A DNA stretch of 64,000 nucleotides from Amphiscolops sp. MND2022. Taxonomy: Eukaryota. Shown piece by piece: positions 1 to 54,124 of this stretch. Made by a program: the position numbers and the translations under genes. The stretch covers positions 73,844,001 to 73,908,000 of the forward strand of contig OZ076409.1 in NCBI GenBank assembly GCA_964187785.1, given 5' to 3'. Numbering within the stretch: position 1 is the stretch's first letter; the number at the start of each line of letters is the position of its first letter. The notes below the pieces were generated by a model. It ran no database searches and had not been told where the DNA came from. It saw only the letters and a list, made by a program, of their open reading frames with translations.

Positions 1-66
1 AACTATTTCACTACAACCACCCTACCACCCGGCCCCTCGTATCTTTGTTCAACCGTACACGTCTAG

Positions 67-3000
67 GTGCCCAAATCCATCGATTTACCTTCACTTTGAG
101 GGCGGGGTAGGGCCCCCGACAGGCTCCTCAGGCTTTAGACTGGCAACTTTAAGCCATTGTGCAAAATGAAAGCGATTTTCTAAACGGCCCATACGATTTG
201 GCTGAAATTTTGCATACGGCTTCCTCTAGCAATTCTAAGAACTAATCCCTACTGGCGTTTTGCCCGGAAAAATCAAAAAGTTGGTCAAAATCACTATTTT
301 AGGTGCCGAAAATGGCGTTTTTTCGAAAATTTTTTTTTCAAGAGCCCATATCTCGCTTCCAGGTGCTCGTAGCGGGTCGCATGTGGACGTTGATATTGCT
401 AGGCACTTCGTAAGGAGTCCGTATACAAATTTTCGTTCCGATCGGATAAAAATTGACTGAGTAATAGCCGCAAATCGGACGAATTTTTCCGGAAATTTTG
501 GTGCAACTAGTCTATCTCTGCCGTTTTTTGCCCAGATTTTTTTCCAGGACCTCTCCTAAAGACCTCCCCTGGCCGGTTTAGCCCCCAAAAAAACCATTTG
601 GCCCTTTTGCCGCAGTTTCAGCGTTCCAGGATTCCCCGGGTAAAAGTAAAATGTCTTAGAATTTTTTCGAAAAATTTTCAAAAATTTTTTTTTTCAACTT
701 CAGGCCTCCCAAAGTCATAGAACTTCCACACAACTAGTATTGCAAGTGAATGCATGTGGAAAGTGCTTGAATAGACGAGAAAAATGAGCTATTATAAACC
801 TCTGTAGCTTAACCTGACGTTGACTTAAGACAATTTTAGTGTGAGCTTCCTATGTGAGAAAAAATTTCAAAAATTGAAAATCGAAGCTAAGCCTCATCCA
901 AAACTCATCGGAATACGTTCAATCCATCCCAAAGCGGTTTGTTCCCAGTTGTAGAGTGCAGCAACACCATTCAAGGTCATTTGGCCCACTTTAATAGGTT
1001 TTGACTTTGTCTTATCCATCCGAAAATTCGAAACAGTTAAGTACATTCCATCTCCCCTCCGTGGGAGATGGTAATGTACTCGCAAAAAGCCAAGTACTAC
1101 CGCCCTATTCTACCCGTAGTGGTGCTAGAAATGCAGTAGCGTGAGCTCCAGGTTGTTTGCAGTAGCCTTTACGTATGTTGTGATTATGTATTACAATTCT
1201 AACTCTGTTACTAAACATTAAAAAATTGTTTCAATCCCAAATTTTTTTCAACCTTAGTATGTCACCAATAAAGATATATCCATCTTTCCTACTACAACCA
1301 CCCTACCACCCGGCCCCTCGTATCTTTGTTCAACCGTACACGTCTAGGTGCCCTAACCCATCGGTTTACCTTCATTTTGAGGGCGGGGTAGGGCCCCCGA
1401 CCGGCTCCTCAGGCTTTAGACTGACAACGTAAGGCGCTTTTCAGTTGTAGAGACGATCTCGAAAATGGCCCATACGATTTTGCTCAAATTTTGCATACGG
1501 CTTCCTCTAGCGATTCTAAGAACTTTTCCCTACTACCATTTTGCCCGGAAAAATCAAAAAGTGGGTCAAAATCTTAGTTTTTTGGTCGAAAAATGGCGTT
1601 TTTTCAGAAAATTTTTTTCAAGAGCCCATATCTCGCTCACAGGTGCTCGGAGCGGGTCGCATGTGGACGTTGATATTGCTAGGCACTTCGTTAGGAGTCC
1701 GTAGACAAATTTTGGTTCAGATCGGATAAAAATTGACAGAGTAATAGCCGCAAATCCGACGAATTTTTCAGAAAATTTTGGTACACCTAGTCTATCTCTG
1801 CCGTTTTTTGCCCAGATTTTTTTCCAGGACCTCTCCTAAAGGCCTCCCCTGGCCGGTTTACCTCCCAGAAAAACCATTTGGCCCTTTTGCCGCAGTTTCA
1901 GCGTTCCAGAATTCCCCGGGTAAAAAATAAATGACTTAGATTTTTTTCGAAAAATTTTCAAAAAATTTTTTTTCAACTTCAGGCCTCCCAAAGTCAAGAA
2001 ACTTCCACACAACTAGGATTGCAAGTGGATGCATGTGGAAAGTGCTTGAATAGACGAGAAAAATGAGCTATTATAAAACTCTGTAGCTTAACCTGACGTT
2101 GACTTAAGACAATTTTAGTGTGAGCTTCCTATGTGAGAAAAAATTTCAAAAATTGAAAATCGAAGCTAAGCCTCATCCAAAACTCATCGGAATACGTTCA
2201 ATCCATCCCAAAGCGGTTTGTTCCCAGTTGTAGAGTGCAGCAACACCATTCAAGGTCATTTGACCCACTTTAATAGGTTTTGACTTTGTCTTATCCATCC
2301 GAAAATTCGAAACAGTTAAGTACATTCCATCTCCCCTCCGTGGGAGATGGTAATGTACTCGCAAAAAGCCAAGTACTACCGCCCTATTCTACCCGTAGTG
2401 GTGCTAGAAATGCAGTAGCGTGAGCTCCAGGTTGTTTGCAGTAGCCTTTACGTATGTTGTGATTATGTATTACAATTCTAACTCTGTTACTAAACATTAA
2501 AAAATTGTTTCAATCCCAAATTTTTTTCAACCTTAGTATGTCACCAATAAAGATATATCCATCTTTCCTACTACAACCACCCTACCACCCGGCCCCTCGT
2601 ATCTTTGTTCAACCGTACACGTCTAGGTGGTCGGGAATCTTTCCTACCTCATGCTTTGAGGGCGGGGTAGGGCCCCTGCCCGATCCTAATCCTTAGGATT
2701 TTAAACATAAGGCGAAAAGACCAAATGAAAGCGATCTCGAAAACTAACCTTACGATTTGGCTAAAATTTTGCATGCGGCTCCCTATGACAGATATAAGAA
2801 CAAATCCCTAGTGGCATTTTGCTGGGAAAATTCAGTTTTTGGGTCAAAATCACTATTTTATGTCCAAAAAATGGCGTTTTTTCGGAAAATTTTTTTTCAA
2901 GAGCCCATATCTCGCTCCCAGGTGTTCGGAGCGGGTCGCATGTGGACGTCGATATTGCTAGGCACTTCGTAAGGAGTCCGTAGACAAATTTTCGTACAGA

Positions 3001-3892
3001 TCGGATGAAAATTGACTTAGTAATAAAAAACTTTGATTTGCATTTTTTCGAAAATTTATGAAATCCCAGTGTATCTCTGCCGTTTTGTGCCCAGATTTTT
3101 TTCCAGGACCTCTCCTAAAGGCCTCCCCTGGCCGGTTTACCTCCCAGAAAAACCATTTGGCCCTTTTGCCGCAGTTTCAGCAATCCAGGATTCCCCGGGT
3201 AAAAGTAAAATGACTTAGAATTTTTTCGAAAAATTTTCAAAAATTTTTTTTTTAACTTTAGGCCTCCCAAAGTCAAGAAACGTCCACACAACTAGTATTG
3301 CAAGTGGATGCATGTGGAAAGTGCTCGAATAGACGAGAAAAATGAGCTAGTATAAACCTCTGTAGGTCAACCTGACGTTGACTTATGACAATTTTAGTGT
3401 GAGCTTGCTATGTGAGAAAAAATATCGAAAAATAAAATCGAAGCTAAGCCTCATCCAAATCTCATCGGAATACGTTCAATCTATCCCAAAGTGGTTTATT
3501 TCCAGTTGTCTAGTGCAGCACCACCATTCAAAGTCCTTTTTGACTAATTTATATAAGTTTTGACATCGTCTTATCCATTCGAAAGTTGAAGCAGTTAAGT
3601 ACATTCCATCTCCCCTCCGTGGGAGATGGTAATGTACGCGCAAAAAGCCAAGTACTATTGCCCTTTTTCTACATGGAGTGGACCTAGAAATGCATTAGCG
3701 TGAGCTCCACGCTGCTTGCAGTAGCCCTTACAGGTGTTGTACCTTTGTTACAAAACTAACTGTTACTAATCATAAAAAAAAATGTTACAATCGAAAAATT
3801 ATTTTCATTAATTATATTTACACGTTTTGTTGTCAATTACAATAACTACAGCTACCGCCTCCTGGTTTGATTGTTCAACCGTGCACGTCTAG
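67..3892 (+). mobile_element. Three non-autonomous family-A units (67-1347, 1348-2626, 2627-3892; 1281/1279/1266 bp), preceded by the 3' end of another unit (1-66)
   Basis: The units are highly similar to each other. The 5' ~780 bp and the terminal gttcaaccgtNcacgtCTAG are shared with the autonomous elements. They carry the cgatttggctgaaattttgcat and aaattttcgtNcagatcggat motifs reminiscent of Helentron-associated non-autonomous elements. No credible ORF. Confidence 0.85.
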
Positions 3893-4783
3893 GTGCCAAA
3901 ACCCAATGGTTTGCCAAAGTTTCGAGGGCGGGGTAGGGCCCCCAGCCCGAGTCAAAAGTCGAAGACTAACAACGTAAGGCCAATACTAAAACCTCCTATC
4001 GATCTTGGAAACGGCCCGTCAGATTTGGCTCAAATTTTGCATGCGGCTTCCCCTAGCGATTCTAAGAACTTTTCCCTACTGCCATTTTGCCCGGAAAATT
4101 TTTTTTGTTGACTTATACACTATTTTAGGTGCCGAAAATGGCGTTTTTTTGGAAAAAATTTTTTTAAGAGCCAATATCTCGTTCCACAGGCCCCGGATCA
4201 AAAAGTGTACAATTGTTCGCACGTTAGGCACTTCATGAACTGTCCGTAGACAAATTTTCGTCCAGATCGGATTAAAATTGACTGAGTAATAGAAAACTTT
4301 GAAAGTGATTTTGACGACATTTTTCGAAAACCTAGTCTATCTCTGCCGTTTTTTGCCCAGATTTTTTTCCAGGACCTCTCCTAAAGACCTCCCCTGGCCG
4401 GTTTACCTCCCAGAAAAACCATTTGGCCCTTTTGCCGCAGTTTCAGCGTTCCAGGATTCCTCGGGTAAAAGATAAATGACTTAGAATTTTTCAAAAAAAA
4501 TTCAAAAAAAAAAATTTTTTTCTTCAAACCTTCCAAAGTCAAGAAACGTCCACAAAACTAGTATTGCAAGTGAATGCATGTGGAAAGTGCTCGAATAGAC
4601 GAGAAAAATGAGCTATTATAAACCTCTGTAGCTCAACCTGACGTTGACTTATGACAATTTGAGTATAGGTAGGTTTTAAATTAGTGGTGTTCCTAACTAA
4701 TTTTTTTCTTTTTTTCCAGGTGTCGGAGATGGCTTTTTCTGCATACAGGTAGTATTTGGTAACAGGTTACGTCCGGTAAGTAT

Positions 4784-5780
4784 CTTATGGGTTGACCAGA
4801 CGCCCCAGTAGGTCTGGCACGCTTTTCGGCACCGCGTTTCCTGAAGCCGCTGAGATAGGTAGGTTGTTTTTTGTAAAAAATCCACTCGAAAAATTTTCCT
4901 TATGGGTTGACCAGACGCCCCAGTAGGTCTGGCACGCTTTTCGGCACCGCGTTTCCTGAAGCCGCTGAGATAGGTAGGTTGTTTTTTGTAAAAATCCACT
5001 CGAAAAATTTTCCTTATGGGTTGACCAGACGCCCCAGTAGGTCTGGCACGCTTTTCGGCACCGCGTTTCCTGAAGCCGCTGAGATAGGTAGGTTGTTTTT
5101 TGTAAAAATCCACTCGAAAAATTTTCCTTATGGGTTGACCAGACGCCCCAGTAGGTCTGGCACGCTTTTCGGCACCGCGTTTCCTGAAGCCGCTGAGATA
5201 GGTAGGTTGTTTTTTGTAAAAAATCCACTCGAAAAATTTTCCTTATGGGTTGACCAGACGCCCCAGTAGGTCTGGCACGCTTTTCGGCACCGCGTTTCCT
5301 GAAGCCGCTGAGATAGGTAGGTTGTTTTTTGTAAAAATCCACTCGAAAAATTTTCCTTATGGGTTGACCAGACGCCCCAGTAGGTCTGGCACGCTTTTCG
5401 GCACCGCGTTTCCTGAAGCCGCTGAGATAGGTAGGTTGTTTTTTGTAAAAATCCACTCGAAAAATTTTCCTTATGGGTTGACCAGACGCCCCAGTAGGTC
5501 TGGCACGCTTTTCGGCACCGCGTTTCCTGAAGCCGCTGAGATAGGTAGGTTGTTTTTTGTAAAAAAATCCACTCGAAAAATTTTCCTTATGGGTTGACCA
5601 GACGCCCCAGTAGGTCTGGCACGCTTTTCGGCACCGCGTTTCCTGAAGCCGCTGAGATAGGTAGGTTGTTTTTTGTAAAAATCCACTCGAAAAATTTTCC
5701 TTATGGGTTGACCAGACGCCCCAGTAGGTCTGGCACGCTTTTCGGCACCGCGTTTCCTGAAGCCGCTGAGATAGGTAAGT
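4784..5780 (+). repeat. 114-116 bp tandem repeat, ~8.7 near-identical copies
   Basis: Unit tatgggttgaccagacgccccagtaggtctggcac...aaattttcct starts at ~4786, 4901, 5015, 5129, 5244, 5358, 5472, 5588 and 5702. Copies differ mainly in A-tract length. Confidence 0.95.
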
Positions 5781-6449
5781 TTAAACTCCTTTAATACTCT
5801 GCGTTCGAATCTGGGTTTCTAAGACTTATTTTTTTGTCCTACGTTTTTTCGGATTAGGTTTCATAGGCTTACTTTCTTAGGTTTTTTAGGATTAGGTTTC
5901 ATAGGCTTACTTTCTTAGGTTTTTTAGGATTAGGTTACTTAGGCTCAGGTGTAGGTTTTAAACTGATATTAAGTTATCATGTACTTTGTTTTTAACAGGG
6001 ACAGCAACAACGAAGAAAAAGAAACTAGTAGAGTGACGCGGTATTTTTTACAGTTGAATAATTTATTATTTATTTTTCATTCATTGAATATTTTAGTTCA
6101 TTGTTTCATCTATTGAAATCTTTATTCCTCTTAATTGAAACCTTTAAATCATAATACTTCATTTTCGACTTCATATTTGTTTTTGGTTTCAAATATATAT
6201 ATTTTTTACTTTTATGAGAAATTTCTGGACTTCTTCGATTGGAAATTTTCTTGTCTTTCTTCGTCAAAAAATACACTTCAATTATTTTTTAATGCAATTT
6301 CTATCTTTTTCTGTTTGAAAAAGTGTTACAGGATTGTCGCAATTCATGATCATACCATTGCGAGCGGAGGTCTACCGATACAAGGGTGGCCAAATGCTCC
6401 GAAATTCTCTGTACTGGTTCAGTTTCTACATTTTTTCAGAGCTCAGAAA

Positions 6450-7013
6450 ATGACTGCAACCACACTATTTGTCAATGGTCTTAAGTTCAAAGCCATTGTT
6501 AAGGAATCCACTAGGAACTCAGTATTGTTATTCGGTGATTCGTTGGTCAAAGAGTTGGATATGCAGGAAATGGACAAAGTTTGCTTGTCTGGAGGCCGGT
6601 GTGCAGACCTAAGAACGATAATACAATCCTCGTATTTTTCAAGATATCGAGTTGTGATCTTAATGTTCGGCGGCAACGATTTGCAAGGACGATTCAAAGG
6701 AAATGTGTTTCGAAAAAGCCTGTCTCCTCAGGAAATAGCCCAGAATCTATTGGAAATTTCTTTCTATCTGTCAAATAGAAACGTTGATGTCTATGTTATG
6801 GGTATACCTTATCGGGGCAATCAGACCTTCCTGAAAATAAAAGAACTGAATTCCCTACTGTTTGCCAGCACAGGAATTTGCTACGAGTTTGTTGGTCTTG
6901 GGGGTCAGCTCTCAAAAGCCTCTGTAATTAGTGGAGACAAAGTTCACCTAAGTGACGAAGGAATTAGCCGTTTGAAATCAATTTTCAAAAACAAAATCCT
7001 CAAATATTTATGA
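6450..7013 (+). CDS. SGNH/GDSL hydrolase-like protein (~187 aa; probable start MTATTLF at 6450)
   Basis: Block I LLFGDS, block II SGG, block III MFGGND, block V GDKVHL (DxxH). The ATG follows a ttttttcag acceptor-like site. The upstream part of the 6135 ORF is AT-rich and probably non-coding. Confidence 0.8.
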   Translation: MTATTLFVNGLKFKAIVKESTRNSVLLFGDSLVKELDMQEMDKVCLSGGRCADLRTIIQSSYFSRYRVVILMFGGNDLQGRFKGNVFRKSLSPQEIAQNLLEISFYLSNRNVDVYVMGIPYRGNQTFLKIKELNSLLFASTGICYEFVGLGGQLSKASVISGDKVHLSDEGISRLKSIFKNKILKYL

Positions 7014-7211
7014 GCAATTACTTTGAAAATGTCAAATTGAACGTTCACGTGATTGATTTTGCTTTTTATTGATTTCTTTTACATGTTTGATTGGATTGCT
7101 TGTTTTAAAAAGCTGTTTGGCCTTGTATGCCTCTTTGCATTTGAGTTTAATTGAACTGTTTCTTTTTTTGTTCTTTTTATTTTTTTTAATCGTTACATCG
7201 TCTTTCATTTT

Positions 7212-7693
7212 CATCACTGATCGACGGAAAGCGTGGTCAGTGATTAGGATTTTTAAACAATTTAAGGTAGAAGTGTCATCACTGATCGAAGAAAAGCGTG
7301 GTCAGTGTTTTGGATTTTTAAACAATTTAAGGTAGAAGTGTCATCACTGATCGACGAAAAGCGTGGTCAGTGTTTTGGATTTTTAAACAATTAAAGGTAG
7401 AAGTGTCATCACTGATCGACGAAAAGCGTGGTCAGTGGTTAGGATTTTTAAACAATTTAAGGTAGAAGTGTCATCACTGATCGACGAAAAGCGTGGTCAG
7501 TGGTTAGGATTTTTAAACAATTTAAGGTAGAAGTGTCATCACTGATCGACGGAAAGCGTGGTCAGTGTTTAGGATTTTTAAACAAATTAAGGTAGAAGTG
7601 TCATCACTGATCGACGAAAAGCGTGGTCAGTGTTTAGGATTTTTAAACAAATTAGGGTAGAAGTGTCATCAGTTGTCGACGTGAAACGTGGTT
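7212..7693 (+). repeat. 65-bp tandem repeat (~7.5 copies), each carrying the ATCGACG-N4-GCGTGGT hairpin
   Basis: Unit catcactgatcgacgaaaagcgtggtcagtg...aaggtagaagtgt at 7212, 7277, 7342, 7407, 7472, 7537, 7602 and a degenerate copy at 7667. Confidence 0.93.
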
Positions 7694-7941
7694 CTACATA
7701 CAGGTAATATTTGGTAGTAGGTAAAACAGGTAATCCTCGGTAAATATGCGGGCAAAGGTGAAAATAAAGTGCAACCGTGTTTCCAGTAGTACGCAATCTT
7801 TGTTATGTGTCAAAAATGGTGACTTTTTCTGATGATGTCTAACAGGATCAGCGTTTTTCCAGATTTGATTTGAATTGCTTTGATCTGCTTTGCCAACATT
7901 AACTTGTTTTGCTTGGCTATCAAAGAGGCTAAAAGTCCCCA

Positions 7942-10900
7942 ATGCCTCGTGGTAGAGGGAGAGGAAGGAGTAGAAGCAACCAGAGAAGATGTACTGTACA
8001 TAACACTTTTCTTGGAAGCGATGGTATGTGTGTAAGGTGCCATGAGCAATCGCAGCAACATGATGAAGCAGGAGGTTCAGCTATGAACGATACGAATTCC
8101 CCTTTCCCCCCAGATGCCCCCAATGATGTAGAGACGACAGGTGTGGAGAGAGTAGACGTAGAGATGTGTGCGAAGTGTGCCAGGATTAGTACTAACAATT
8201 ATCAACTTGACTTCCACCTTGTACAAAAAGACTCGATTCACTCGACTATGTTTGGTAAAAATGTGCATGAAACCCAAGAGGAGACGATCAGAATGTGCCA
8301 ACAGTGTGTAAACTACGACAGAAACACCAGTCGACACAAAGATTGGCCCAACGCGTGGCCCAGCGTATTGTATACTTTACTTTTCGATACTCATAGGTTT
8401 AGTTCAAATGCAGAGAAACTTTACAAAATACTTCCACATGAAATCAAAGACTCCTACAAACAACACATGTATACTGTTCATCCATCAATAGTTAGAACTG
8501 TTAACGAATCTGTTTTGAGGGACATAACAAAGGAAAAAGAAGACTTTTGGACTTTAATAAACAGTCGAACTGCGAAAAACTTAGTCAATGCTCTAACTAA
8601 ACACTGTTTTCCTAACATAAGATGCCCAGCAGGTTGTTTCGAATTCGTCGAGAAATCGCAAGGAATTTCGTTCGCACATTTTCTAAACTGGATTTACCCT
8701 CTCTTCACTAGTTTCAATGCCAACAGTAGAAAATTTTTGAAGGGAGCTCGTGAGGATTTCATGAAACGTATAACTTTGTTGGAAAAATTCAATGTTGCAC
8801 CTTGTATCATGGTTAACGAAAAAGGTTTACAGTTAGCTACTTGTTGTGATCATAAAAACGGTGTCCTACTAAACTACGTACATGTACCAACCAATCCAGT
8901 GGCAGGTAACATCAGCCCAAAATTCGTCGACAGGTTAGCTCCAATGGTATCAAGCGTTCGAACTGTAAGACCCCTCAAAATTGGCTCTAAAAGTGCAACG
9001 TTCACCATGTGTCGGGTTGACAGTGGACGCATAAGTGGTGTCAGTTCCACTGTTCTTCACAAATTCAGAAATTTTGAATGTCCTTTAAATTACTTACGTC
9101 TAAACATGGAGAAACTTCTGATTAATTGTCGTGATGATATTAGGTTAATTATCAGGGTTTGCTGTCAAAATCAAGAAATAACTTCAAATTTTGCTACAGA
9201 GCTACTCGAATTAGATTTACCTACTTCTACGGCCTTAGTTGAAGAACACTGTAAAAATTCTACTGTTTTCAATATGAACACTTTAATGCGGATGAAGGAC
9301 TTTGTAGAAACTTGTACCGATGACATTTTAAGTCGTGACAGCTTTAAAAAACCGTCGATCTATGGACATAAAATGGACGGCTACGGTTTCGAGCCTCCTA
9401 GCTTACCTAAAACTTTTTCACAAGACCGCCGTTTGTTCACCTTCGCTTATTGCCTCTTGTATAACGATTCCATTTGGTCCAAGCTCTGTAGTTGTTCAGG
9501 AGAGTCAGATCAGCTAGTTGAACTTTGTAAACTTTTGAATTGCTTGAGAGGAAACAGAAGCTTACAGTATAATAACACTATCAATTCAGTAATGACTAAT
9601 TTGCGCAGGATCTTAAATGAACTGTTTCCCTCTCAATTAGAACCGTTGACGTCTTTATGTGATTCACTAGAAGGTTGTCAAGTTTTACATTGTCCAAGAG
9701 GATCAGTTGAAAATGTTGTAATTGATTGCTCGCGCAATGATGTGGTGCTAGTTGTTGCGAACGAAGCCCCAGCTAGAGATCGTCAAATTCCCTTCAATTT
9801 AACATCACTCAATGGTAAAGATTTTCAATTAAACTTCATTTCAGCAGACGGTAAGGTAAGTTTGAGACACGGAGATCCGTTCTTCAATTTTTGGACTATA
9901 GTAAACGACGGAAGCCGAGCAGTGAAGGACCCAACTTTAGAATACCAGTACAATAGGATTTGGAAATTTTTAGTCTACGTTTCAAATACCGATTTGAATG
10001 AGGAAACTAAGCTACGGTACTTAAAATACATGGGAGGTCAAGGGGTTTTTTTCTGCCGTGAACATAACCTGCCTTTATCGACGGATTACTTTAAAAGCGG
10101 AAGAAAATGTTGTATGCCTAAAAATTCGACTGATCACCTAATCTGTACTAGAAAATCTGCTTGGCGTTGCCCAAAGAAAGGTTGTGTTGCGTCGGTTTGT
10201 AAAACTCATTTTCGCGAGTTTTGTGACACAAACGATAAGGTTTTGGTCGACAACGCCCAATCAGATGACGCCATCTTGGATAGCAGTGACGATGAGCCAA
10301 CTTTTGAAGAAGCAACACAGCAGCCCGAAGACAACTTGCCAGGGCCCAGCTTCGTGCTGGATGAACAACAAAGAATTGACAATCCAGAAGCCAACATGGA
10401 TGAGTTCGATTGCCCACAATTAATTGTGGATGCAGGGTTCCAAGAAACTGATGCTTTTGCCACGGACGCTGGCTGTGAGCCCGTTTACTTGTCCGAGGAT
10501 TCTAATTTCGTTCCCATGCATGTACTTTTGAATGGTGAATGCCAAGTGCTAAAACGTTTAAAGTATCCAGCTCATATTGGTAAAAAATTTCAGCGTTTCT
10601 TTCAAAATTTCGTTTCAACTCTACCGGGCCGTTCAATACCACTTCTGCAACCGGAGGGATGTTTGTTCCCGAGCATTTTCTATAAACAGTTGGAAGACGG
10701 TTCGTTTGCCGGGGCTCTGCCATTTTTCTTGTACGATGACAAAAATGCTAACTCTAAATTAGATTTCGATGGTTTGCATGAACACATGCGTTTAAGACTT
10801 AAGGACGGTACGCTTTTAACTTCTTCGAATTTGGCCTATATAATGTATGCTTTCGACTGTGTTTTAAATTTGTCACTCGTAAAATGTCACACAAATCAAT

Positions 10901-18676: not shown

Positions 18677-18875
18677 CAGCACATGTGGATGATGACAACA
18701 GCAGTGGTGGATGTGCAGCACAGCAGATGTGGATGATGACAACAACAGTGGTGGATGTGCCGTACAGCAGATGTGGATGATGACAACAACAGTGGTGGAT
18801 GTGCAGTACAGCAGATGTGGATGACGACGACAACAGTGGTGGGTCTGCAGTGCAGCAGATGTGGACGAGGACGAC
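18677..18875 (+). repeat. 44-bp tandem repeat, ~4.5 copies
   Basis: cagcagatgtggatgatgacaacaacagtggtggatgtgcagta-type unit at ~18677, 18721, 18765, 18809 and 18853. Confidence 0.9.
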
Positions 18876-39200: not shown

Positions 39201-40459
39201 TAATTTTTTGCATGCGGCCGTAACTCAAAATTCTAAGAACTTTTTCCTTCTGCCATTTTCCCCGCAAATTGTTTTTTGTTGACTTATGGCCGAAAAACCG
39301 GAAATAACGTCCTTTTTAGACGTTATATCCGAAGTGTCGTCATAACTTTTTTCCAGGGCATGCTAGCGTTCTCGTTCACTTTTACACTTAGTTGCAGCAT
39401 CTCAAAATACAACTGGTGGAAATTTTTGGTTGCATTCGGAACACCCCCCACCGAGATAGAAGGGTTCCCCCCTCCAGTTTTACCCCCCAAATTCGCAAAA
39501 AAGCCAATTTTGAGCATGAAGCCGAGGATTTAGCGTACCCGCACCCTTCTGATGTTTTGTTGTACGTATTGGGGTCAATCTGACGACATGTGTGGTTTTC
39601 ACCCCCAACCCCCCCTGGGACCGGAAATGACACTTTTTTGTGTTTTTTGGCAGAATTTAGCCTTTTCCATTATTAGGCAGTCGTTTTAGGGACTCCTAGC
39701 AGGATATCGAAATTGAAATACAACCTGATCACAACCCAGTGACAACATGTTGGCCATTTGGAGGTACCATCAAGACCGGAAGTGGGGTCAACCCCCCTTT
39801 TTGTGACCGCTTTTTGACCTTGTGCACCAAAATGCCAACAACTTGAGGCCTAATGACGCATTCAAATCTGTACAAAGATTGAATGTTAGACAACCGAAGT
39901 CCCGGAAGATCTTTAGCATATACCGGAAGTTACCCCCCATGACCGGAAGTTACCCAATGTGACCGTAAATGGTCCAAAAATTAATGTAAAGTTGAATGTT
40001 TCACTATTTCAAGACCACTTCATTGAACATTTTCAATCCCAAAACTAGCGTACTGGCTTGTTTTGCTGAATTTATGGAAATTGATGAGCTCTATCACCCC
40101 CGATAGCCTTCGAAGTTGACCTTGCGTCAACTTTGGAGGCTATCGATTCTGAAAATGAACAACAGAGTACATTGTTGCTCTCGTTTTTTTTCCGTTGTTT
40201 TTCCTCAAACGTTCTTGAGACATATACATGGCAGTTAGTTAAAATCAATATTTTAGCCCATGTTATAGCGGGAGTAGCGAAGCGTTACACAGGCTAGTGT
40301 GGTTTTGAACTTACATTATTTTAAAATAAAAAAAGACCGTCTTAGTCAACGCCACACTTTCATAGCAACGCCCACCGTCTGTGGGCATGCCGAGGCATGC
40401 CCTTCGACGACGTATGACGAATCCGCTCCGCTCCCACGACGCCCGCAGTCCTCAGCTAG
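36269..40459 (+). mobile_element. Family-C unit (36269-37659), related family-D unit (37660-39064) and family-C unit (39065-40459)
   Basis: The two C copies are highly similar. All three are rich in accggaagt motifs and end with a gggcatgccgaggcatgccc hairpin ~50 nt before CTAG. Confidence 0.8.
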
Positions 40460-43400: not shown

Positions 43401-44292
43401 CCAATCGGACTTGTAGTCTTGGAGATATTACGGTATTTTTTGAGAATTTTTGAAAATTTTTTTAACGGTCCAGCTTATCTTTGCCATTTTTTCGAAAATG
43501 TACTCGCCTAAAGGCCTCCCCCTGGCCGAATTTACTCCCAGCAAAACCATTTGGCCCTAAATACGGAGTTTCAGCGTTCCAGCATTCCCGGGCGAAAAGT
43601 TGTGGGACTTAGAAAATTTTTTTGGAAACGCAAAATGTGTAAAGTCAACTTCTGGCCTCCCAAAGTCAAGGAACTTCCACACAACTAGTATTGCAAGTGA
43701 ATGCATGTGGAGAGTACTCGAATAGACGAGGAAAATGAGCTATAGAACGTCTCTGTAGCTTAACTTGACGTTGACTTATGACCTTTTGAGTGTTAGCTTG
43801 CTATGCGAGAAAAAATTCAAAACATGAAAATGGAAGCAAAGTATCGTCGAAAACCCATCATAAGATGTTCAACTCATCCTAGAGCGGTTTATTAACAGTT
43901 GTTTAGTAGAGCAACACCATTCATGATCATGTGACCCATTTTTATGGGTTATGAGATTGTCTTATTCATCCGATAGCCCAAAGCAGTTGAGTACATTCCA
44001 TCTCACATCCGTGTGAGATGAGAATGTACTCGCTAAAGTCCAGGTACTACAGCCCATTTTGGTTTTATGCGACGCTCTGTATGCAAATGAGCTTACTTGA
44101 AGTTTTTTTAGCTGATATTTTTTTAAACTGCACTTTGACTCTGACCTGACATACTGAATATTTAGTCCTTATAACATACACATAATTGACGTCAACGCCC
44201 CATCCTTGCATCAACGCCCACCGTCCGTGGGCATGCCGAGGCATGCCCTTCGACGACGCGCACCAAAATATTCCCCGAGCGCGTTAGCCTAG
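40460..44292 (+). mobile_element. Three mosaic A-related units (40460-41743, 41744-43029, 43030-44292; 1284/1286/1263 bp)
   Basis: They share family-A internal modules but have different 5' leaders. The first and third end with the gggcatgcc hairpin; the second has an A-like 3' part ending in CTGG. Confidence 0.75.
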
Positions 44293-47200
44293 GTGGTCGG
44301 GGTGTGTTTCCCAGCCGATTTTGCCGCGCGGGGAGGGACCCGTTCAGCGGCCCAGGTAATTATTTTTTACATTAAAAAAAACGATACCCCGGAAAGCGAT
44401 TTCGAAACCCACCCGTAGGATCCCTCTGAATTTTTGCATACACCTCCGTATAACAGTTCTAAGAAAAAGTCAGCAAGGGCGTTTTCAGTTCTAAACGGGG
44501 AATGTTGACCAAAAAGCGCAATTTATGTCCAAAAAAATGCAATTTTTCGACTTTTTTATTTTTGACGGCCTACAGCTCTTTTCCAGATGCCCGCCCAAGT
44601 CATAAACCGGAGTAAACTTTTGTTGGGCACTTCGTGAAGAATCTTTAGGGTGATTTTCGTTTCAATCCTATTTCCTGACGTTGACTTATGATTGGGTGAA
44701 AAAACGCAACATTTGTTACAAAAAGTGCTTTTGGTACTCAAGGGCCCATAACTCGTGACATAATCAGTTGAGCAAGTTCGTGTATACTTACGATTTTGTT
44801 GCCTATCTATAGGAGAACAAACTAGCAGGGACAAAGGTTTCTGTGGGAAATCGTCAAAAAAAGATATCACAGGTTTTATACTCAATAAAACAGTGTTTTT
44901 CGGTTATCGTGGAAAAAATGTAAAACGGTGGCATTTTTCGGCTGTTTAAGGTAGCGGGTATTTTATTGCAGTTAATTACTCACCTCTAGTAGTCATTTAC
45001 TTGGATGAATTTCAATTTTGATAAATTGCTTGATAAACTTTATTTTTTGCGTCACCAATATTGACAGCCACAACTACAGTCAATTTTTTCGCGTTCACGT
45101 TTTTCAATGGATATAACTTTTTTCCAGTGCGTTTTACGGTCCTCACCCAGGAGCACAAAATTGTTGCCCGTCTTAAGCAGAAGGCATATGGTAAGTTTAG
45201 AGTCATTTGAAACGTTTTTGAAATGTCCAGAGATGCACAAATTTACAATTTTTTTGCCCACAAAACACTATTTTACGAAACCCAACACTTTTTGCCAAAA
45301 AAGTCAACTTTCGTCCACACAACTTAGATTGCAAGTGGATGCATGCGGATAGTACTCGAAGTGATGAGAAAAATGAGCTATAGAACGCTCATTTACGACA
45401 ACCTGACGTGGACTTATAATGATTTGAAAAATGACGAAAAAAGAGAACAACGGTTCCAAAACAGTCAGTTTATAGTAAATGGCCAATAACTCCATACACA
45501 ACCATCCGCGCAAGCTAGTGTCCAAGTACGTTTTTGTTACCCGTGAGCAGTGTAACAAATAAATAAACGTAAAAGTTATGAAGAATATCGTCGGTGAAAG
45601 AAATAACGTGATTTTATATCACATTTGAGTGACAAAATTGAAAAAATAGTCAATCAATGGCATTTTACCTAAACTTTTTCGACAGTACCCACACACGGGG
45701 TTAAATCCGCTCAAAATTGTGCCTACCAAAACTATTTGATCCATTGGCCGCAAATTGAGCGTTCTAGCTTAACCCAGTCAAAAATTATGGGACTTAAAAA
45801 TTTTTTCAAAATTTTTCATTTTTCAAAAAATTTCAACTTCAGGCCTCCCAAAGTCAAGAAAGTTCCACACAACTAGGGTTGCAAGTGGATGCATGTGGAA
45901 AGTACTCGAATAGACGAGAAAAATGGGCTATAGAACGTCTCTCTATCGTAACTTGACGTTGACTTATGACGTTTTGAATGCGAGCTTGCTACGGTGTCGA
46001 GAAGTCAAAGTGTGTAAGTGGAACATATGTTTCGTCGAAAACTCATCGGAATACTTTCAATGAACCCCAAACACACTCAATTGCAGTTGCCTAGTGCAAC
46101 AACGTCTTTCAAAAACCTTTTTTATAAGAGTCGAAATCATTATTAAATTCAATTAGCAAAGAACACTTGAGTACATTCTCATCTCTCCCCATCGGGGGAG
46201 ATGAGAATGTACTTGCAAATTGGCCTCCTTTTGTTTTCATGCGAGGCAATATGTCCTTTGGCACATATATAATTTTGTGATGACTGAATTTCGTATATAA
46301 TTTGACTTGTCATTAGAAATTTGCCGACAGTCCTTTACGTAATATTAACTTTCTACCATGCACCTTCAACGACAAAGCCACATAAGTTTAGACGCCCACT
46401 GTCCGTAGACATGCCGAGCCATGTTTTTCGACAACTTATGCCGAGAAACAAACGGGAAAAAAAGTGCTGAATGTCAGTGACAAAAAACAGTGACAAAATA
46501 TTGGCTATTTGACATAAGGTAGGTTTTTACATGGAACTCACACATCACTGAAAATTAAACAACAATCCAGTTGACGCACACATACCAACATCAACGCCCA
46601 CCGTCCGTAGGCATGCCGAGGCATGCCTTTCGACGACGTATGCCTAACCCACTCCCCGATGCCCCCGCTGTCCCCTAGGTGGTCGGGGTTATTTCCCAGC
46701 CAATTTTGCCGCGCGGGGAGGGACCCGTTCAGCGGCCCTGGTAATTCTCAAAAATGTACCGAAGGAAATGATAACGAGGAAAGCGATTTCGAAACCCACC
46801 CGTAGGATCCCTCTAATTTTTTGCATACACCTCCGTATAACAGTTGTAAGAAAAAGTCAGCAAGGGCGTTTTCAATTCTAAATGGGGAATGTTGACCAAA
46901 AAGCGCAATTTATGTCCGAAAAAATGCAATTTTTCGACTTTTTTTATTTTTGACGGCCTACAGCTCTTTTCCAGAGTCCCGCCCAAGTCATAAACCGGAG
47001 AGAACTTTTGTTGGGCACTTCGTGAAGAATCTTTAGGGTGATTTTCGTTTCAATCGTATTTGCTGACGTTGACTTTTATGTGACACAATTAGGTGACAAA
47101 TTCGGTAAAAAAACGTGACATTCGGACTCAAGGGCCAATAACTCGTTACAGAATCAATTTAGCAAGTTCATTTATATTTACGTTTTTGTGGTCTATTGAT

Positions 47201-49057
47201 AGGCAAACAATTAAGCAGGTACAAAATTTTCTGTGAAACATCGTCAAAAAAAGATATCACAGGTTTCAAAAACGCAAAAAATGTAAATTTTTGGATTTTG
47301 TGCAAAATGTATAAAAAGGTGGCATCTGCCGGCTGTTTCAGGTAGCGGGTGTTTTATTGCAGTTATTAACTCACCTCTAGTAGTCATTTTTTTGGATGAT
47401 TTTTGATTTTGATAAATTGCATGAAGAACTTCATTTTTTGCGTCACCAATATTGACACCCACGATTACAATCAAATTTTTCGCGTTCACGTTTTTCAATG
47501 GATATAACTTTTTTTCAGTGTGTTTTACGGTTCTCACACAGGAGTGCAAAATTGTTGCCCGTCTTAAACACAAGGCATATGGTGAGTTTAGAGTCATTTG
47601 AAACGTTTTTCAAATGTCCAGAGATGAACAAATTTACAGTTTTTTTGCCCCTAAAATACTATTTAACGAAACCCCACACTTTTTGCCAAAAAAGTCAAAC
47701 TTCGTCCACACAACTTAGATTGCAAGTGGATGCATGCGGAGAGTACCTGAAATTCCGAGAAAAATGAGCTATAGAACGCTCATTTACGACCACCTGACGT
47801 GGACTTAAGATAGTTTGAAAAATCATAAAAAAGAACAACGATTCCAATACAATCAGTTTGTAGTAAATGGCCCATAACTCCATACACAACCCTCCGCGCA
47901 AGATAGTGTACTAGTACGTTTTTATTACCTGTGAGCAGTGCAACAAATAAGCAAAAGTAAAACATTATGTAGAAAATCGTCGGGGAAAGAAATACCGGGA
48001 TTTTATATCACATTTAAGTGACAAAATTCAAAAATCAGTCTATCCATGGCATTTTCCATAATATTTTTCGACAATACATCCACACGGGGTGAAATCTGCC
48101 TAAAATTGTGCCTACTAATACTATTAGATCCTTTGGCCGCAAGTTGAGCGTTCTAGTTTCCCCAGTCGAAAATTATGGGACTTCGAAACTTTTCAAAATT
48201 TTCTTTTTTCAACAAAATTTCAACTTCAGGCCTCCCAAAGGTAAGAAAAACCCACACAACTAGGATTGCAAGTGCATGCATGTGGAAAGTACTTGAATAG
48301 ACAAGAATAATGGGCTTTAGAACGTCTCTCTGTCATAACCTGACGTTGACTTATGATGTTTTGAATGTGAGTTTGTTAAGGGGTCGAGAAGTCAAAGTGT
48401 AAAAGTGGAACATATGTCTCGTCTAAAACTCATCGGTATACATGCAATGAACCCCAATCACACTCAACTGCAGTTGGCTAGTGCAACAACGTCTGTCAAG
48501 GACTTTTTCTGATAAGTGTCGAAATCATTATTAAATTCAGTTAGCAAGAAACTCTTGGGTACATTCTCATCTCTCCCCATCGGGGGAGATGAGAATGTAC
48601 TTGCTAAAACGGTCTCATTTGTTTTCATGCGATCATTATGTGCTCTGGCAAATAGATAACTTTGTTTCGTCTGACTTTCTGAGAAACGTTGACTTGTCAA
48701 TAAAGTTCCCGTCATTACTTTACGCAACATAAACTCTCTACCATTCACCTTTAAATTCAAAGCCACATAAATTTAGAATCGCACGATCGAAAAACATACC
48801 GAGGCATGTTTTCGACGACATTTGCCGAAAAAAAACGTGAAGAACATACTGAGAGATTCAGAAACAGTGACAACCACTTTTGACTTTTTAACATAGGGTA
48901 TGTTTTTATATGGAACTTACACATCAATGAATATTCGCAACATTCCAGTTGACGCCAACCTACCAACATCAACGCCCACCGTCCGTGGGCATGCCGAGGC
49001 ATGCCCTTCGACGACGTATACCAAATTCACCCCTCCGACGCCCCCACCGTCCCCTAG
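44293..49057 (+). mobile_element. Two family-E units (44293-46678, 46679-49057; 2386/2379 bp)
   Basis: Homologous end to end. Each has two copies of the ccacacaact...gcatg module and a duplicated terminal hairpin block. Confidence 0.8.
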
Positions 49058-51249
49058 GTGGAGGTTATTTTATAATAATTAAAGTGTTTTTTTCCGGAGT
49101 TTGTGGCTTTGGAAAAAACAAAAGGCGAGAAATTGGGCACTCCGGGCTGAACCGTATACACTCAAAATTCGCCCAATATTTATACGATCTCGAAACCCAG
49201 CCGTACGATTTGGCTGAAAATTTGCATGCGGCTAAAGAATCAGATTCTAAGAAATATTTCCTGCTGACATTTTTCTGAAATTTTTGTGTACGTTTCCCCC
49301 CCGTCCCCTAAAGGGGTCAAATTTCCCCAATTTTGCACTTATGGGTCAAATTCTCAAAACTGGTGGATCTGAGCGTATTCCCGGCGGGGACAACTTTTAA
49401 CAAGCGCTCCTCAATAGACCTTTTTGACTTTTTACTTTGGTGGTACGTTCACCCCCCGAGGAGGAAATGGCGTTTTTGTGACTTCCGGTCGAGGCTTTTT
49501 TCACCCAAAAAATAGAATTAAGCCAATTTTGAGGAGGAAGGAGTGGATTTAAAGTGCCTGTACCCTGCTAAAAATTTGTTGGGCTTGTAGCGATATATCT
49601 CATACCAAGTCTGGTTTTCACCCCCAAACCACCCTTGGGACCAAAATTCACCCAAACTTTTTTACCTCTGTTTGTAGTTTTTTTGCAAAATGTCGTCATT
49701 TCCATGGGTAAGGAAATGAATTAGGGGCTCCTAATAGGAAACCAATGTTCAAGTACACTTGCAGTGCAACTGAGTGACCCTTTTTGGGCCTCTCCTGTGT
49801 TCGGCAAGGACCGGAAGTGGTGTAAACCCCCCTTTTTTGACGTTTGTTGACCTTGAGACTCGCGCTTAGATGACGTTTATGTCGAGCAAATCCTACAAAC
49901 CAGTATTAGGATGACATGCTAATCAACTAGAGAGCACTAAGGTAAACTATACTATACCGGAAGTAACCCCCCGTGACCGGAAGTTGTCATTTTTGACCGG
50001 AAATGGTCCAAAACCTAGCGTAAAAGCAGTTTTTCATTGCTTTTAAAGTTAACTTCTTACATTTTTCAATCTGCGCGAGCTTTTCTTCAGGTTCGTTTTT
50101 GTTGCCAGTGCACAGCAACGAATATACAACTGTAAATCTTTCGCTATAAAATCGTCGGAGAGAGATATAATGGGTTTTTGGGACTTTTTTTTCAAAAACG
50201 ATAGTCTGTATCTGTCATTTTTACCCAACGTTATTCAACAGTAGAACCACAGGGGTTAGTCTCTGCCAAATATATGCCTTACAAAACCGGTTCATCCATT
50301 GGTTACAATTTAAGCGTTCTAGCTTTGCCAGGTCACAAGTTATGGGACTTGAAAAATTTTCAAATTTCTTTCTAAAAATTGTTTCTAAACTTCATGTCTT
50401 CCAAAGTTAAGAAACTTCCGCACAACTAGGATTACAAGTGAATGCATGTGGTAAGACCTATAATTGGAGAGAAAAATTCGGTTTAGAACGTCTCTTTATC
50501 GTAACGTGACGTTAAGAGAAGTTGCTTTGAATGCGAGCTTGATAAGACGTCGAGAAGTAACAGTGTGTAAATGGAACCTATGTCTCGACAAATACTCATC
50601 GGAATACATGAGATAAACCCCAATTACCCTCAATTTCAATTGCCTAGTACAACAACGTCTTCCAAGGACCCTGTTATCTTTTTGATAAGCGTTGAAGTCA
50701 TCATTAGATTGAGTTCGCAAGAAACAATTGAGTACATTCTCATCTCTCCCCATCGGGTGAGATGAGAATGTTTTTGCTAAAAGCCAGGTACTACGGCCCA
50801 ATTTTGTTTTATTGCGACGCATTCTGTGCTTTAGCACATAGATACTTTTATTCCGTCTCACTTTTTGACACACCCTGATTTGTTGTTATAAATTTCTCGT
50901 CATTACTTTACATAAACTAAGTACCATAAAACTTTAACGTCAAAGCCACATTCATTTAGACGCCCACCATTCCGTAGGTATGCCGAGGTATGCCATTCGA
51001 AGATGTATGTCAAACGCAAATGCAATAAAGTGAGTGCTGAAAATCGGAAACAGTGACAAACAATTTTGACTTTTTGATATTTGTTAGGTTTCCATATGGA
51101 ACTTACACATCACTGACATTTCAAAACATTCCAGCTGACGCTCACATACAAACATCAACGCCCACCGTCTGTGGGCATGCCGAGGCATGCCCTTCGACGA
51201 CGTATAGCAAATTCTTTTAATATCTACACCCAATTGCGGTAGCGGCTAG
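49058..51249 (+). mobile_element. Family-F unit (2192 bp), C/D-like 5' half plus E-like 3' half
   Basis: accggaagt and ttttcacccccaa modules in ~49500-50050; E-type modules and terminal hairpin in ~50150-51249. Confidence 0.7.
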
Positions 51250-52319
51250 GTGGTCAAGGGGGATGCCCATCAGAAAATATTGCGAGGCCGGGGAGGGTCC
51301 CGAGAGCCGAGCACATTCTATCAATTCCTACCTTCAGGATTGCGAAGTATTTTAACCGATCTCGAAATTCACCCGTAGGATTTGTCTGAAACTTTGCATG
51401 TGGCTTTATCTCAAAAATTTAAGAATTTTTTTCTGCTGACGTTTTTCCAGGAAAATTCATTTTGTAGGTTTTTTTTGCGTTTTTTTGGTTTTTTTCATCT
51501 TTTTTCATCTTTGATTAATCAATGACCGAATCAAAGGCCATTTTCACCATGAAGGAGAGCCCGTAGCGGCAAAATGCACTCTTATGAAAATCATCAACGG
51601 TCAACGGTCTTTCGAACGGTCCAAAAAAATTTCCCCCCGGGGGCAACCAAAGTGCCGAAAAGTGCCAAATGTATTTTTTTGACTGAATCACTTTGATCAA
51701 ATTGATGATTTGAGCAGCCGGAACGGTCTGCACGGTCTCGGACAATAAGGTCAAAAATTGTCAGCATCCAATGGGGTTTACAAAAATGTAATTCGTTTAC
51801 CTGCAGGAGACATCAGAAAAAAGTTGATTTTTTTAAGTTTTGGCATTATGACTGATCGGATGATAAATCATTGCATCACGTTGAGTTGCATTTGATGCAG
51901 CACACGAAGCAGCTGCAGCGAACTTGAAACTGCTTAGGGGGCTGGGGTTTACTATCTGTAACAAGCAAAATATCCCTTGGGCAAAAGGTATGCCAAAAAG
52001 TGCCTGAAAGTGTTAATTAAGTTGTTGCAAATCGGCTAGCAAAATACATTGTCACCGGTGTTCCGTGAGTTGCGCAGCATCTCGCGGGAACAACGGTGCT
52101 TGTTTCGAACGCAAAACCCAACATACCTCTTTGGTGACGTGACGGAGGTCACCATTGGCCTTTTTCGGCAGTGTGATGATATTTTTATTGTTGAATTGTG
52201 AACAACATACACAAAAGATTTAGCGTGGGATATTTGTTTGTGTCATACTTCAGTAACAAACCTTCAACCGTTTTGTTTAGGCCTCTACCTAACAGTGCTC
52301 TAAATCGCTCCATCGCTAG
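51250..52319 (+). mobile_element. Second family-B unit (1070 bp)
   Basis: Homologous to 35199-36268. Confidence 0.8.
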
Positions 52320-54124
52320 GTGGTCGGGGTTGTTTCCCAGCCGATTTTGCCGCGCGGGGAGGGACCCGTTTAGCGGCCCAGGTAATTAAGATTTTGTCAT
52401 TAAAAAAATGACCCATGCTAGAAGCGATTTCGAAACCCACCCGTAGGATCCCTCTGAATTTTTGCATGCACCTCCGTATAACAGTTGTAAGAAAAAGTCA
52501 GCAAGGGCGTTTTCAGTTCTAAACGGGGAATGTTGACCAAAAAGCGCAATTTATGTCCAAAAAAATGCAATTTTTCGACTTTTTTATTTTTGACGGCCCA
52601 CAGCTCTTTTCCAGATGCCCGCCCAAGTCATAAACCGGAGTAAACTTTTGTTGGGCACTTCGTGAAGAATCTTTAGGGTGATTTTCGTTTCAATCCTATT
52701 TCCTGACGTTGACTTTTATGTGACGCAATTAGGTGAGGAATTCGGTGAAAATACGTGATTTTGGTACTCAAGGGCTCATAACTCGGTACAGAGTCAATTT
52801 AGCAAGTTCTTTCATATGTACGTTTTTGTTGCCCAACTATAGACAAACAATTAAGCATCTACAAAATTTTCTGTGAAACATCGTCAAAAAAAGATATCAC
52901 AGGTTTTAAAAACGCAAAAATTGTACTTTTTTGGATTCCGTGAAAAAAATATAAAAAAGTGGCATCTACCGGCTGTTTCAGGTAGCGGGTACTTTTTTGC
53001 AGTTAATAGCTCACCTTTAGTAGTCATTTACTTGGATGGTTTTTGATTTTGATAAATTGCATGAAAACTTTCATTTTTTGCCTCACCAATTTTGACACCC
53101 ACGGTTACAGTCGATTTTTCGAAATCACGTATTTAACTGGATATACCTTTTTTCCAGTGCGTTTTACGGTCCTCACACAGGAGTGCAAAAATGTTGCCCG
53201 TCTTAAACAGAAGGCATATGGTGAGTTTAGAGTAATTTGAAACGTTTTTGACATGTCCAGAGGTGCACAAATTTACAGTTTTTTTGCCCACAAAACACTA
53301 TTGTACGAAACCCAACACTTTTTGGCAAAAAAGTCAAACTTCGTCCACACAACTTAGATTGCAAGTGGAGGCATGCAAAAAGTACTTGAAATGACGAGAA
53401 AAATGAGCTAAAGAACGCTCATTTACGACAACTTGACGTGGACTTAAGATAAATTGAAAATCACAAAAAAAGAACAACGATTCCAAAACAATCAGTTTGT
53501 AGTAAATGGCCAATAACTCCATACACAACCCTCCGCGCAAGATAATGTACAAGTACGTTTTTATTACCTGTGAGCAGTGCAACAAATAAGCAGAAGTAAA
53601 ACTTTATGCAGAAAATCGTCGGGGAAAGAAATAACGGGTTTTTATATCACATTTAGGTAACAAAATTCAAAAATCAGTCTATCCATGGCATTTTCCCTAA
53701 TTTTTTTCGACAATACATCCCCACGGGGTAAAATCTGCCTAAAATTGTGCCTACTATTACTATTTGATCCTTTGGCCGCAAATTCAGCGTTCTAGTTTCC
53801 CCAGTCAAAAAAATATGGGACTTCAAAATTTTTCAAAATTTTCATTTTTCAACAAAATCTCAACTTCAGGCCTCCCAAAGGTAAGAAAAACCCACACAAG
53901 TAGGATTGCAAGTGGATGCATGTGGAAAGTACCTGAATGGACGAGAATAATGGGCTTTAGAACGTCTCTCTATCGTAACCTGACGTTGACTTAGAGTGTT
54001 TTGAATGCGAGTTTCCTAAGGGTTCGAGAAGTCAAATTGTGTAAGTGGAACATATGTCTCGTCGAAAACTCATCGGAATACATGCAATGAACCCCAAATA
54101 CCCTCAATAGCAGTTGCCCAGTGT
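52320..54124 (+). mobile_element. 3'-truncated family-E unit ending the array
   Basis: Follows the E sequence up to cagttgcccagtg (~54123); unrelated AT-rich DNA follows. Confidence 0.75.

Follow-up and report, generated by a model that had tools for sequence, protein, structure and literature searches.

Mixed head-to-tail arrays of Helitron-type elements in Amphiscolops sp. that probably grow by insertion of single units at existing junctions

How do transposable elements of different families come to lie end to end, in one orientation and without spacer, at the same seven-nucleotide core? Here, we address this question for a 64-kb stretch of the 1.07-Gb genome of Amphiscolops sp. MND2022 (the window; contig OZ076409.1, here C1, positions 73,844,001-73,908,000), which a preliminary description had interpreted as an array of rolling-circle elements that move as circles and integrate at existing CTAGGTG cores. 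Our findings support that these units belong to a divergent Helitron-type rolling-circle lineage, the transposase of which likely cuts CTNG↓NT (the arrow marks the cut) at every step, and that the arrays were probably made by single units inserting at resident junctions. The element ends, the target, the independence of neighbours and the bias towards junctions can be read from the genome sequence, on which our conclusions rest.

The plus strand of the window has 18 copies of CTAGGTG and the minus strand has 2, compared with 2.5 expected per strand under an order-2 Markov model. In all 18 plus-strand cases, CTAGGT is followed by G. Besides these, a CTGGGTG junction is present on the plus strand at 43026; a second plus-strand CTGGGTG, at 24905, lies within an open reading frame (ORF) for a RepHel transposase and is not a junction. 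The abutting, single-orientation arrangement previously reported was borne out, as were the counts of 2 autonomous and 16 complete non-autonomous units between the junctions and the finding that two B family copies of 1070 bp each have unlike neighbours. None of the short units in the window contains an ORF of at least 150 aa. Other points had to be corrected. At a cut-off of at least 80% full-length identity, the 16 short units form 10 families, where "at least 6" had been given. The array does not end at 1 and 54124 but goes on for at least 80 kb on either side. Finally, the last unit, which had been taken for an E copy, is E-like for only 1.8 kb, has no further junction until 75449 (window-equivalent position) and is a 23,130-bp unit with a third RepHel ORF. 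The units are as follows:

1-66, plus strand: 3' end of the preceding 1295-bp unit, closing in CTAG
67-1347, plus strand: A family non-autonomous unit, 1281 bp, GTG...CTAG
1348-2626, plus strand: A family non-autonomous unit, 1279 bp
2627-3892, plus strand: non-autonomous unit of an A-related family, 1266 bp
3893-19147, plus strand: El1, autonomous element, 15,255 bp
7942-15063, plus strand: El1 RepHel ORF, from the first ATG
19148-32633, plus strand: El2, autonomous element, 13,486 bp
20400-27527, plus strand: El2 RepHel ORF, from the first ATG, 82% identical to that of El1
32634-33913, plus strand: A family non-autonomous unit, 1280 bp
33914-35198, plus strand: A family non-autonomous unit, 1285 bp
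35199-36268, plus strand: B family non-autonomous unit, 1070 bp
36269-37659, plus strand: C family non-autonomous unit, 1391 bp
37660-39064, plus strand: D family non-autonomous unit, 1405 bp
39065-40459, plus strand: C family non-autonomous unit, 1395 bp
40460-41743, plus strand: non-autonomous unit, 1284 bp
41744-43029, plus strand: non-autonomous unit, 1286 bp, CTGG end
43030-44292, plus strand: non-autonomous unit, 1263 bp, with a 98.4% copy on contig C10
44293-46678, plus strand: E family non-autonomous unit, 2386 bp
46679-49057, plus strand: E family non-autonomous unit, 2379 bp
49058-51249, plus strand: F family non-autonomous unit, 2192 bp
51250-52319, plus strand: B family non-autonomous unit, 1070 bp
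52320-64000, plus strand: El3, first half of the 23,130-bp unit (whole unit 52320-75449, window-equivalent)
63121-64000, plus strand: start of the third RepHel ORF (El3), which runs to window-equivalent 70251

Where an element ends can be read from copies with other flanks. Among 192 exact A-type 3' ends in the genome, GTG comes next in 161 and a base other than G in 19 (the remaining 12 are unlisted). The 19 non-G ends represent 13 distinct flanks, of which 11 start with AT, one with CT and one with TA (AT background, 11%); because 11 of 13 start with AT, the element ends after CTAG. On the other side, a general 5'-end pattern was found 2,964 times in the genome, preceded by G in 2,941 cases and by another base in 23 (2 in a reversed control); 2,471 of these ends follow CTAG and 470 follow (T/C/G)G, including 37 after YG, with ends after AG contexts other than CTAG left out of the counts. 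Consistently, the A-type 5'-end pattern follows CTAG in 153 cases, HTAG in 3 and a non-G base in none. We fetched 30 of the 37 YG-preceded ends, and CTTG or CTCG precedes 27 of them in a search that had fixed only YG (CT background, 5.8%). At 18 of the fetched loci, the upstream DNA is unlike any array sequence examined; the others are variant unit ends, nested insertions and one mis-parse. Moreover, in two complete mini-arrays, one of three units and the other of four, the left flank is host CTTG and the right flank AT, and in one filled/empty pair an internal site, CTTG↓GTAATC, is empty in 21 matches among the retrieved loci and holds a whole unit at locus L165, with both halves kept and no target duplication (one direct case). 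Based on the host-flanked ends, the mini-arrays and this pair, the target reads as CTNG↓NT without duplication, and the cut in arrays falls between CTAG and GTG, a position that the preliminary description had thought could not be read. The 3' ends of 159 parsed units are CTAG in 149, CTGG in 9 and CTCG in 1, in a unit caller that required CTNG; the host-flanked ends give independent support for the CTRR 3' end that is also typical of HLE1 Helitrons, and at host junctions the 5' end is GTG and not the TC of HLE1. Two other parses were rejected: a boundary at ...CTAGG / TG..., because host-flanked ends have CTAG followed by A, and a target duplication of CTAG, because the host DNA to the left mostly ends in CTTG or CTCG while right ends remain CTAG.

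Several loci add detail on target use. Ten of the 37 5' ends preceded by YG belong to a 3,072-bp family with a CTGG end; in eight host-flanked copies checked (array starts L157, L158, L161, L162, L166, L168, L207 and L209), the next unit adjoins in six, one seems solitary and one is unresolved. This family may be a pioneer or may prefer non-CTAG junctions. At C6:53.13-53.15 Mb (L090-L092), 5' ends lie behind a poor GTAG site. In one copy at C6:53.13 Mb, the 3' end of the upstream element is followed by the same 39-nt flank back to CTAG↓CT, a site that is empty in two paralogues, which suggests that the enzyme used the next good tetranucleotide. L165 and L145 are two insertions into a single host unit, 13 nt apart and some 175 nt before the 3' end of that unit; on another contig, a different unit occupies the same internal site.

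Both ends of the units also carry structured signals. A subterminal hairpin about 35-55 nt inside the element is present in 42 of 43 distinct 5' ends and consists of a G-rich GGGdAGGG core and complementary arms that are specific to the family; cognate arms fold at -8.6 kcal/mol compared with -6.0 kcal/mol for swapped arms, and 0 of 300 permutations were as low. At the 3' end, a subterminal palindrome is common to most non-A, non-B families and is missing from several A-type ends, and a 30-mer containing it occurs 4,066 times, without mismatch, in the genome. By eye, the G-rich box of the 5' end recurs as an imperfect inverse near the 3' end in the A family only; short terminal inverted repeats are a trait of HLE2 elements. 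No Rfam matches were found. Examples, with coordinates counted by hand, are:

36301-36322, plus strand: 5' subterminal hairpin in a C family unit
37588-37607, plus strand: 3' subterminal palindrome

The hairpin extends beyond this genome: it also opens the contig L188, which is from another source, has a RepHel that is 33% identical and matches the units at 72% identity over 236 nt, although its first base lies just internal to where the junction is expected. Downstream of the hairpin, in the first 115-154 nt, 138 of 159 units and L188 have another conserved box.

El1 and El2 encode uninterrupted RepHel proteins of about 2,375 aa with matches above cut-off to Helitron_like_N (PF14214), PIF1 (PF05970) and GIY-YIG; in El1, a Cys-rich N-terminus is followed by an HUH Rep domain, a Pif1 helicase and a C-terminal GIY-YIG domain. 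The HUH histidines are H1128 and H1130 and the tyrosines Y1299 and Y1303 (P0001 numbering), and the HxH and YxxxY motifs are invariant in 25 of 25 aligned relatives. The El3 protein is 31% identical to that of El1 and matches PIF1 and GIY-YIG. The predicted Rep structure has Helraiser (PDB 7LCC) as its sole match (Foldseek E 1e-8; Z 15.1, rmsd 4.1, 356 aligned, 14% identity), and a Rep profile matches Helraiser weakly (E 0.0045). The C-terminal GIY-YIG domain resembles SLX1 (E 3e-10) and was detected in 16 of 19 relatives, 3 of which 19 have an OTU domain; DUF6570 and AP endonuclease gave no match in the two window proteins, El3 or the 19 relatives. Of the 13 long ORFs in the window, 9 were scanned and had no domains other than those of RepHel, and the side ORFs of El1-El3 and the 856-aa N-terminus had no Pfam match above cut-off. 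The Rep region is matched by 704 representative proteins (clusters at 50% identity; E≤0.001), and no relatives were confirmed among candidates from prokaryote contigs (57 pattern candidates) or viral contigs (16); six single junction-pattern matches in viral contigs have no similarity to the units in sequence and were attributed to chance. In P0017, P0022, P0061 and P0048, OTU or Ulp1 protease domains are fused to RepHel, and in the metagenome loci L185, L186, L188 and L192 the gene seems to have introns. For the C-terminal domain, the report that Ssn GIY-YIG nucleases bind hairpins (PMC11893778) is a lead only.

Near-identical units indicate how the arrays grew. The 159 parsed units include 88 pairs with a full-length identity of at least 97%; immediately next to the left core, these pairs are 98.9% identical on the inner side and 34.5% on the outer side, and the respective values at the right core are 91.0% and 41.4%, placing the boundaries exactly at the core. 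These pairs have a common upstream neighbour in 5 cases, a common downstream neighbour in 2 and both in 0, which is the level of chance (random pairs, 3.3% and 3.2%), and among 144 junctions there is 1 two-sided 97% match compared with 1.4 expected. Similarly, El1 has a copy on C2 that is 99.993% identical (one mismatch in 13,562 bp) with both neighbours different, and a second autonomous element has a 99.9% copy on C2 with new neighbours. El1 and its C2 copy differ in length by 800 bp, a difference located where El1 has its 114-bp repeats.

Alternatively, rolling-circle concatemers or end bypass might make tandems, with unequal crossing-over or segmental duplication mixing the families and no preference for junctions. 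Tandem Helitron arrays have been ascribed to rolling-circle replication (PMC5876387, PMC5148889), and an excess of same-family adjacency, tandem dimers of the 3,072-bp family at 2 of 8 sites checked and a tandem unit with 39 nt of flank at C6:53.13 Mb are in line with this idea. However, 90 of 101 neighbours are from different families, repeated hetero-pairs are not in excess (7 compared with 4.8 expected, p=0.19), two-sided shared junctions are at chance, the breakpoints lie at the core and not within shared sequence, and near-identical copies on other contigs have two new neighbours. Block duplication in particular was rejected on the numbers of hetero-pairs (7 vs 4.8) and two-sided matches (1 vs 1.4). 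We conclude that the independence of junctions largely refutes an origin by concatemers and segmental duplication, which we consider improbable.

The use of sites within arrays is biased towards junctions. In 220 kb of array, there are 452 CTNG↓RT sites on both strands, of which 101 are junctions and about 350 are internal and unoccupied (about 3.5 internal sites per junction); no nested or reversed units were found there, and three oversize "units" in the parse, considered as nested insertions, turned out to be missed junctions. Because host-like DNA has about 2.8 CTNG↓RT sites per kb, the genome offers millions of such sites compared with a few thousand junctions, implying a preference of several orders of magnitude, a figure that is inflated by selection on dispersed copies. 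An enzyme that reads only CTNG↓NT could produce a similar picture if it were drawn to a chromatin domain or hopped locally, and nested and reversed insertions were purged. Indeed, insertions are found at CTNG in host DNA and inside units, different parts of C1 differ in family composition, and selection may act against dispersed insertions. However, none of the internal sites in the 220 kb is occupied and no unit is reversed, a purge mechanism is not evident, and the three- and four-unit mini-arrays in unique DNA stack alike; thus, this explanation has a low probability in our view.

A third alternative is true site-specific recombination, in which conservative excision and re-integration at the core reshuffle the array as in an integron. 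An integron has a tyrosine-recombinase integrase with attI/attC and takes up cassettes that bear genes at one end. Neighbour switching is precise and independent, as such a process would predict, and HUH enzymes are able to cut and rejoin single strands. Against it, a tyrosine or serine recombinase was not found (9 of 13 long window ORFs scanned), the many near-identical copies point to replicative spread, there is no age gradient or polarity towards one end along the 220 kb (rho 0.04, p=0.72, 83/98 short units), evidence of excision is lacking, and the short units have no gene cargo (no ORF of at least 150 aa). We therefore regard it as very unlikely, and the earlier label "integron-like" is an analogy only. 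An assembly artefact, either repeat collapse or mis-join, can practically be dismissed, since the units are too diverged and heterogeneous for collapse (median nearest-neighbour identity of 97%, at least 99.9% in only 1 of 83; 44 clusters among 102 units), the same grammar recurs on many contigs and at mini-arrays with unique flanks, and mis-joins are expected inside shared sequence and not at a 7-mer.

Several observations weigh against single-unit insertion at junctions, or caution against too strict a version of it. The 88 pairs are not independent, as they fall into 21 clusters; taking the closest pairs only, the upstream neighbour is common twice and the downstream neighbour once. Same-family neighbours are in excess (11/101 vs 3.8 expected, p=0.0009), so there are some tandem dimers, or a bias among families. 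In 38 of 191 pairs of units that are nearly identical over the 5' 300 nt, the 3' ends are less than 80% alike, indicating that end exchange or recombination also happens. When non-G 3' ends were traced 20 kb upstream, 8 of 10 had no 5' end or array, and many dispersed RepHel matches contain stops; the existence of dispersed copies means that targeting is not absolute or that older waves behaved otherwise. Internal insertions were found outside the 220 kb (L145, L146, L149 and L165). Lastly, the end patterns, being derived from copies in arrays, are biased towards young ends of the array type, the requirement for CTNG-GTG in unit calling makes base counts at the core circular, and 433 GG-preceded 5' ends were counted as a group. 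Altogether, copies are mostly in arrays and not solitary with random flanks, and the idea that units insert at existing cores is supported as far as unit-wise movement into junctions is concerned; it does not hold for a strict 7-mer target, since CTNG↓NT is also used in host DNA.

The array around the window is unbroken over at least 224 kb, in which units abut throughout and CT(A/G)GGTG occurs 105 times on the plus strand and 15 times on the minus strand. Between 70.5 and 76.5 Mb of C1, there are 36 RepHel matches, all on the plus strand (among 150 of 151 matches listed), with identities from 100% to about 30% and no stops within the 200 aa tested. We also sampled 4 kb at each of 11 points: the 8 samples from 70.8 to 76.05 Mb consist of array sequence (7 plus, 1 minus), and the 3 taken beyond this range do not. 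Based on these samples and the RepHel matches, the C1 array is probably continuous over about 6 Mb; family composition changes along C1, and additional arrays are present on C1, C2, C6, C8 and C10. On C2, every RepHel match from 102.05 Mb up to 102.6 Mb is on the minus strand and every one from 102.85 Mb up to 103.88 Mb on the plus strand, i.e., two large arrays face away from each other. Array segments oriented opposite to their surroundings at C1:76.05 Mb (L182) and C1:23.97 Mb (L129) are probably inversions. Two solitary units, L126 (C1:37.447 Mb) and L155, lack a few terminal bases and have the 3' end CTTG↓GT instead of CTAG.

As for the autonomous elements themselves, El3 consists of an E-type 5' 1.8 kb, 8.9 kb of AT-rich DNA and RepHel, and closes with CTAG↓GTG at window-equivalent 75449; it may be one native element or a chimera with an E-type start. 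Its 8.9-kb stretch at 54124-63015 (34% GC) has no second copy among the retrieved loci, and a 190-aa ORF at 62121-62693 has a weak GDSL-like match below cut-off (E 0.035). Inside the autonomous elements, minisatellites are present at 4784-5781 (114 bp), 7211-7692 (65 bp), 15253-15420 (52 bp), 18676-18872 (44 bp) and 28546-29026 (76 bp).

Drawing on models for Helraiser and IS91, we propose that the Y2-HUH domain would nick CTNG↓GT next to the 5' hairpin, that the Pif1 domain would peel off the plus strand, and that a second cut behind the terminal CTAG would yield a circle with a CTAG↓GTG joint, which would then be re-cut and joined into a target CTNG↓NT; in sequence, the joint of such a circle is the same as that of a tandem. 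As a resident junction is a complete origin (tetranucleotide and hairpin), it would be the best acceptor. Insertion at a junction would spare both neighbours and turn one junction into two, so that arrays would grow autocatalytically, in one orientation and with many families together; rare insertions at host CTTG, CTCG, CTGG or CTAG sites would seed new arrays. Whether the 5' hairpin, and not the upstream 3' end, recruits the enzyme is evenly balanced in our judgement, and the L165 and C6:53.13 Mb cases are compatible with recruitment from either side of the junction. SLX1 trims branched or flap intermediates, and by analogy our guess is that the GIY-YIG domain might do the same.

Self-insertion is known from some retroelements, e.g., DIRS-1 and Zepp. 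Among rolling-circle elements, the lineage shares with HLE1 and Helraiser a Y2-HUH Rep fused to Pif1, the Rep fold, the 3' CTRR, non-autonomous derivatives, the lack of target duplication and, in most families, a 3' hairpin; for Helraiser, circle joints of CTAG with the 5' end have been demonstrated (PMC4778049, PMC5876387). HLE1 inserts between A and T and HLE2 between T and T (PMC11417382). In contrast to HLE1, the units start with GTG and not TC, insert at CTNG↓NT and have a conserved 5' hairpin, their transposase is about 2,370 aa with a C-terminal GIY-YIG domain and 14% identity in the Rep region, and most copies lie in mixed arrays and are not dispersed. With HLE2/Helitron2, they share structured ends, OTU in some relatives and GIY-YIG, reported for one HLE2 family, HelenSM92, by HELIANO (PMC11417382); however, they have neither the T-T insertion nor, as far as searched, the DUF6570 of HLE2. 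The lineage may be among the clusters that HELIANO left unclassified. The closest parallel in target choice is IS91, which targets 5'-CTTG beside its origin end, has a terminal cleavage site (5'-CTCG) that resembles the target, carries subterminal palindromes at both ends and inserts orientation-specifically without duplication (PMC13181058); here, the tetranucleotide target is likewise akin to the terminal cleavage site (27/30 CTYG). Unlike the present lineage, with Pif1 and in a eukaryotic genome, IS91 is bacterial and lacks a helicase, and the available part of PMC13181058 has no report of large self-stacked mixed arrays. In maize, two different Helitrons adjoin head-to-tail, with CTAG joined to the next 5' end, which was read as consecutive insertion (Du et al. 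2008, PMC2267711), and tandem arrays of one element occur in bats and plants (as cited in PMC2267711, PMC5876387, PMC5148889); in contrast to these cases, adjacency is the rule here for thousands of copies and dozens of families, with transposases only 31% identical. Helitrons at Paramecium chromosome ends, a divergent clade, target telomeric repeats, which separate the copies (PMC13085455); insertion is targeted there, too, always in one orientation, and autonomous and non-autonomous copies make up large domains, whereas here units abut directly, without telomeric repeats between them, and the arrays are interstitial. In the literature searched, which excluded Repbase, subscription journals and the HELIANO supplements, neither a Helitron lineage that targets a tetranucleotide nor mixed arrays of megabase size have been described.

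The system is thus a Helitron-type variant and not an integron, and adjacent mixed Helitron pairs have been published before. Reviews set Helitrons, which do not prefer unique sequences, against the rolling-circle elements of prokaryotes, which are site-specific (PMC8788227); the lineage described here follows IS91-style target rules in a eukaryote and is apparently self-targeting. It makes testable whether head-to-tail Helitrons arise from concatemers or by consecutive insertion, and the thousands of natural junctions in this genome favour insertion. It also provides a route to megabase repeat domains besides satellite amplification and random nesting. Intact, recently copied transposases together with a short, defined target and a hairpin are usable in biochemistry and possibly for ordered, repeatable insertion of DNA. 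More tentatively, and at somewhat less than even probability, we suggest that RepHel with GIY-YIG marks a separate, widespread eukaryotic class of rolling-circle elements with its own origin as landing site, in which a terminal code is common to dozens of passenger families and to transposases with as little as 31% identity, which together build self-extending megabase domains. These domains might serve as a living reservoir of the family, because the 36 RepHel matches in the C1 array are stop-free over the 200 aa tested and stops occur in dispersed copies. If so, eukaryotes would have, in this enzyme, a site-preferring DNA integrase with a self-regenerating target, and the array domains may have a chromosomal role as heterochromatin, as a centromere or as a source of small RNAs.

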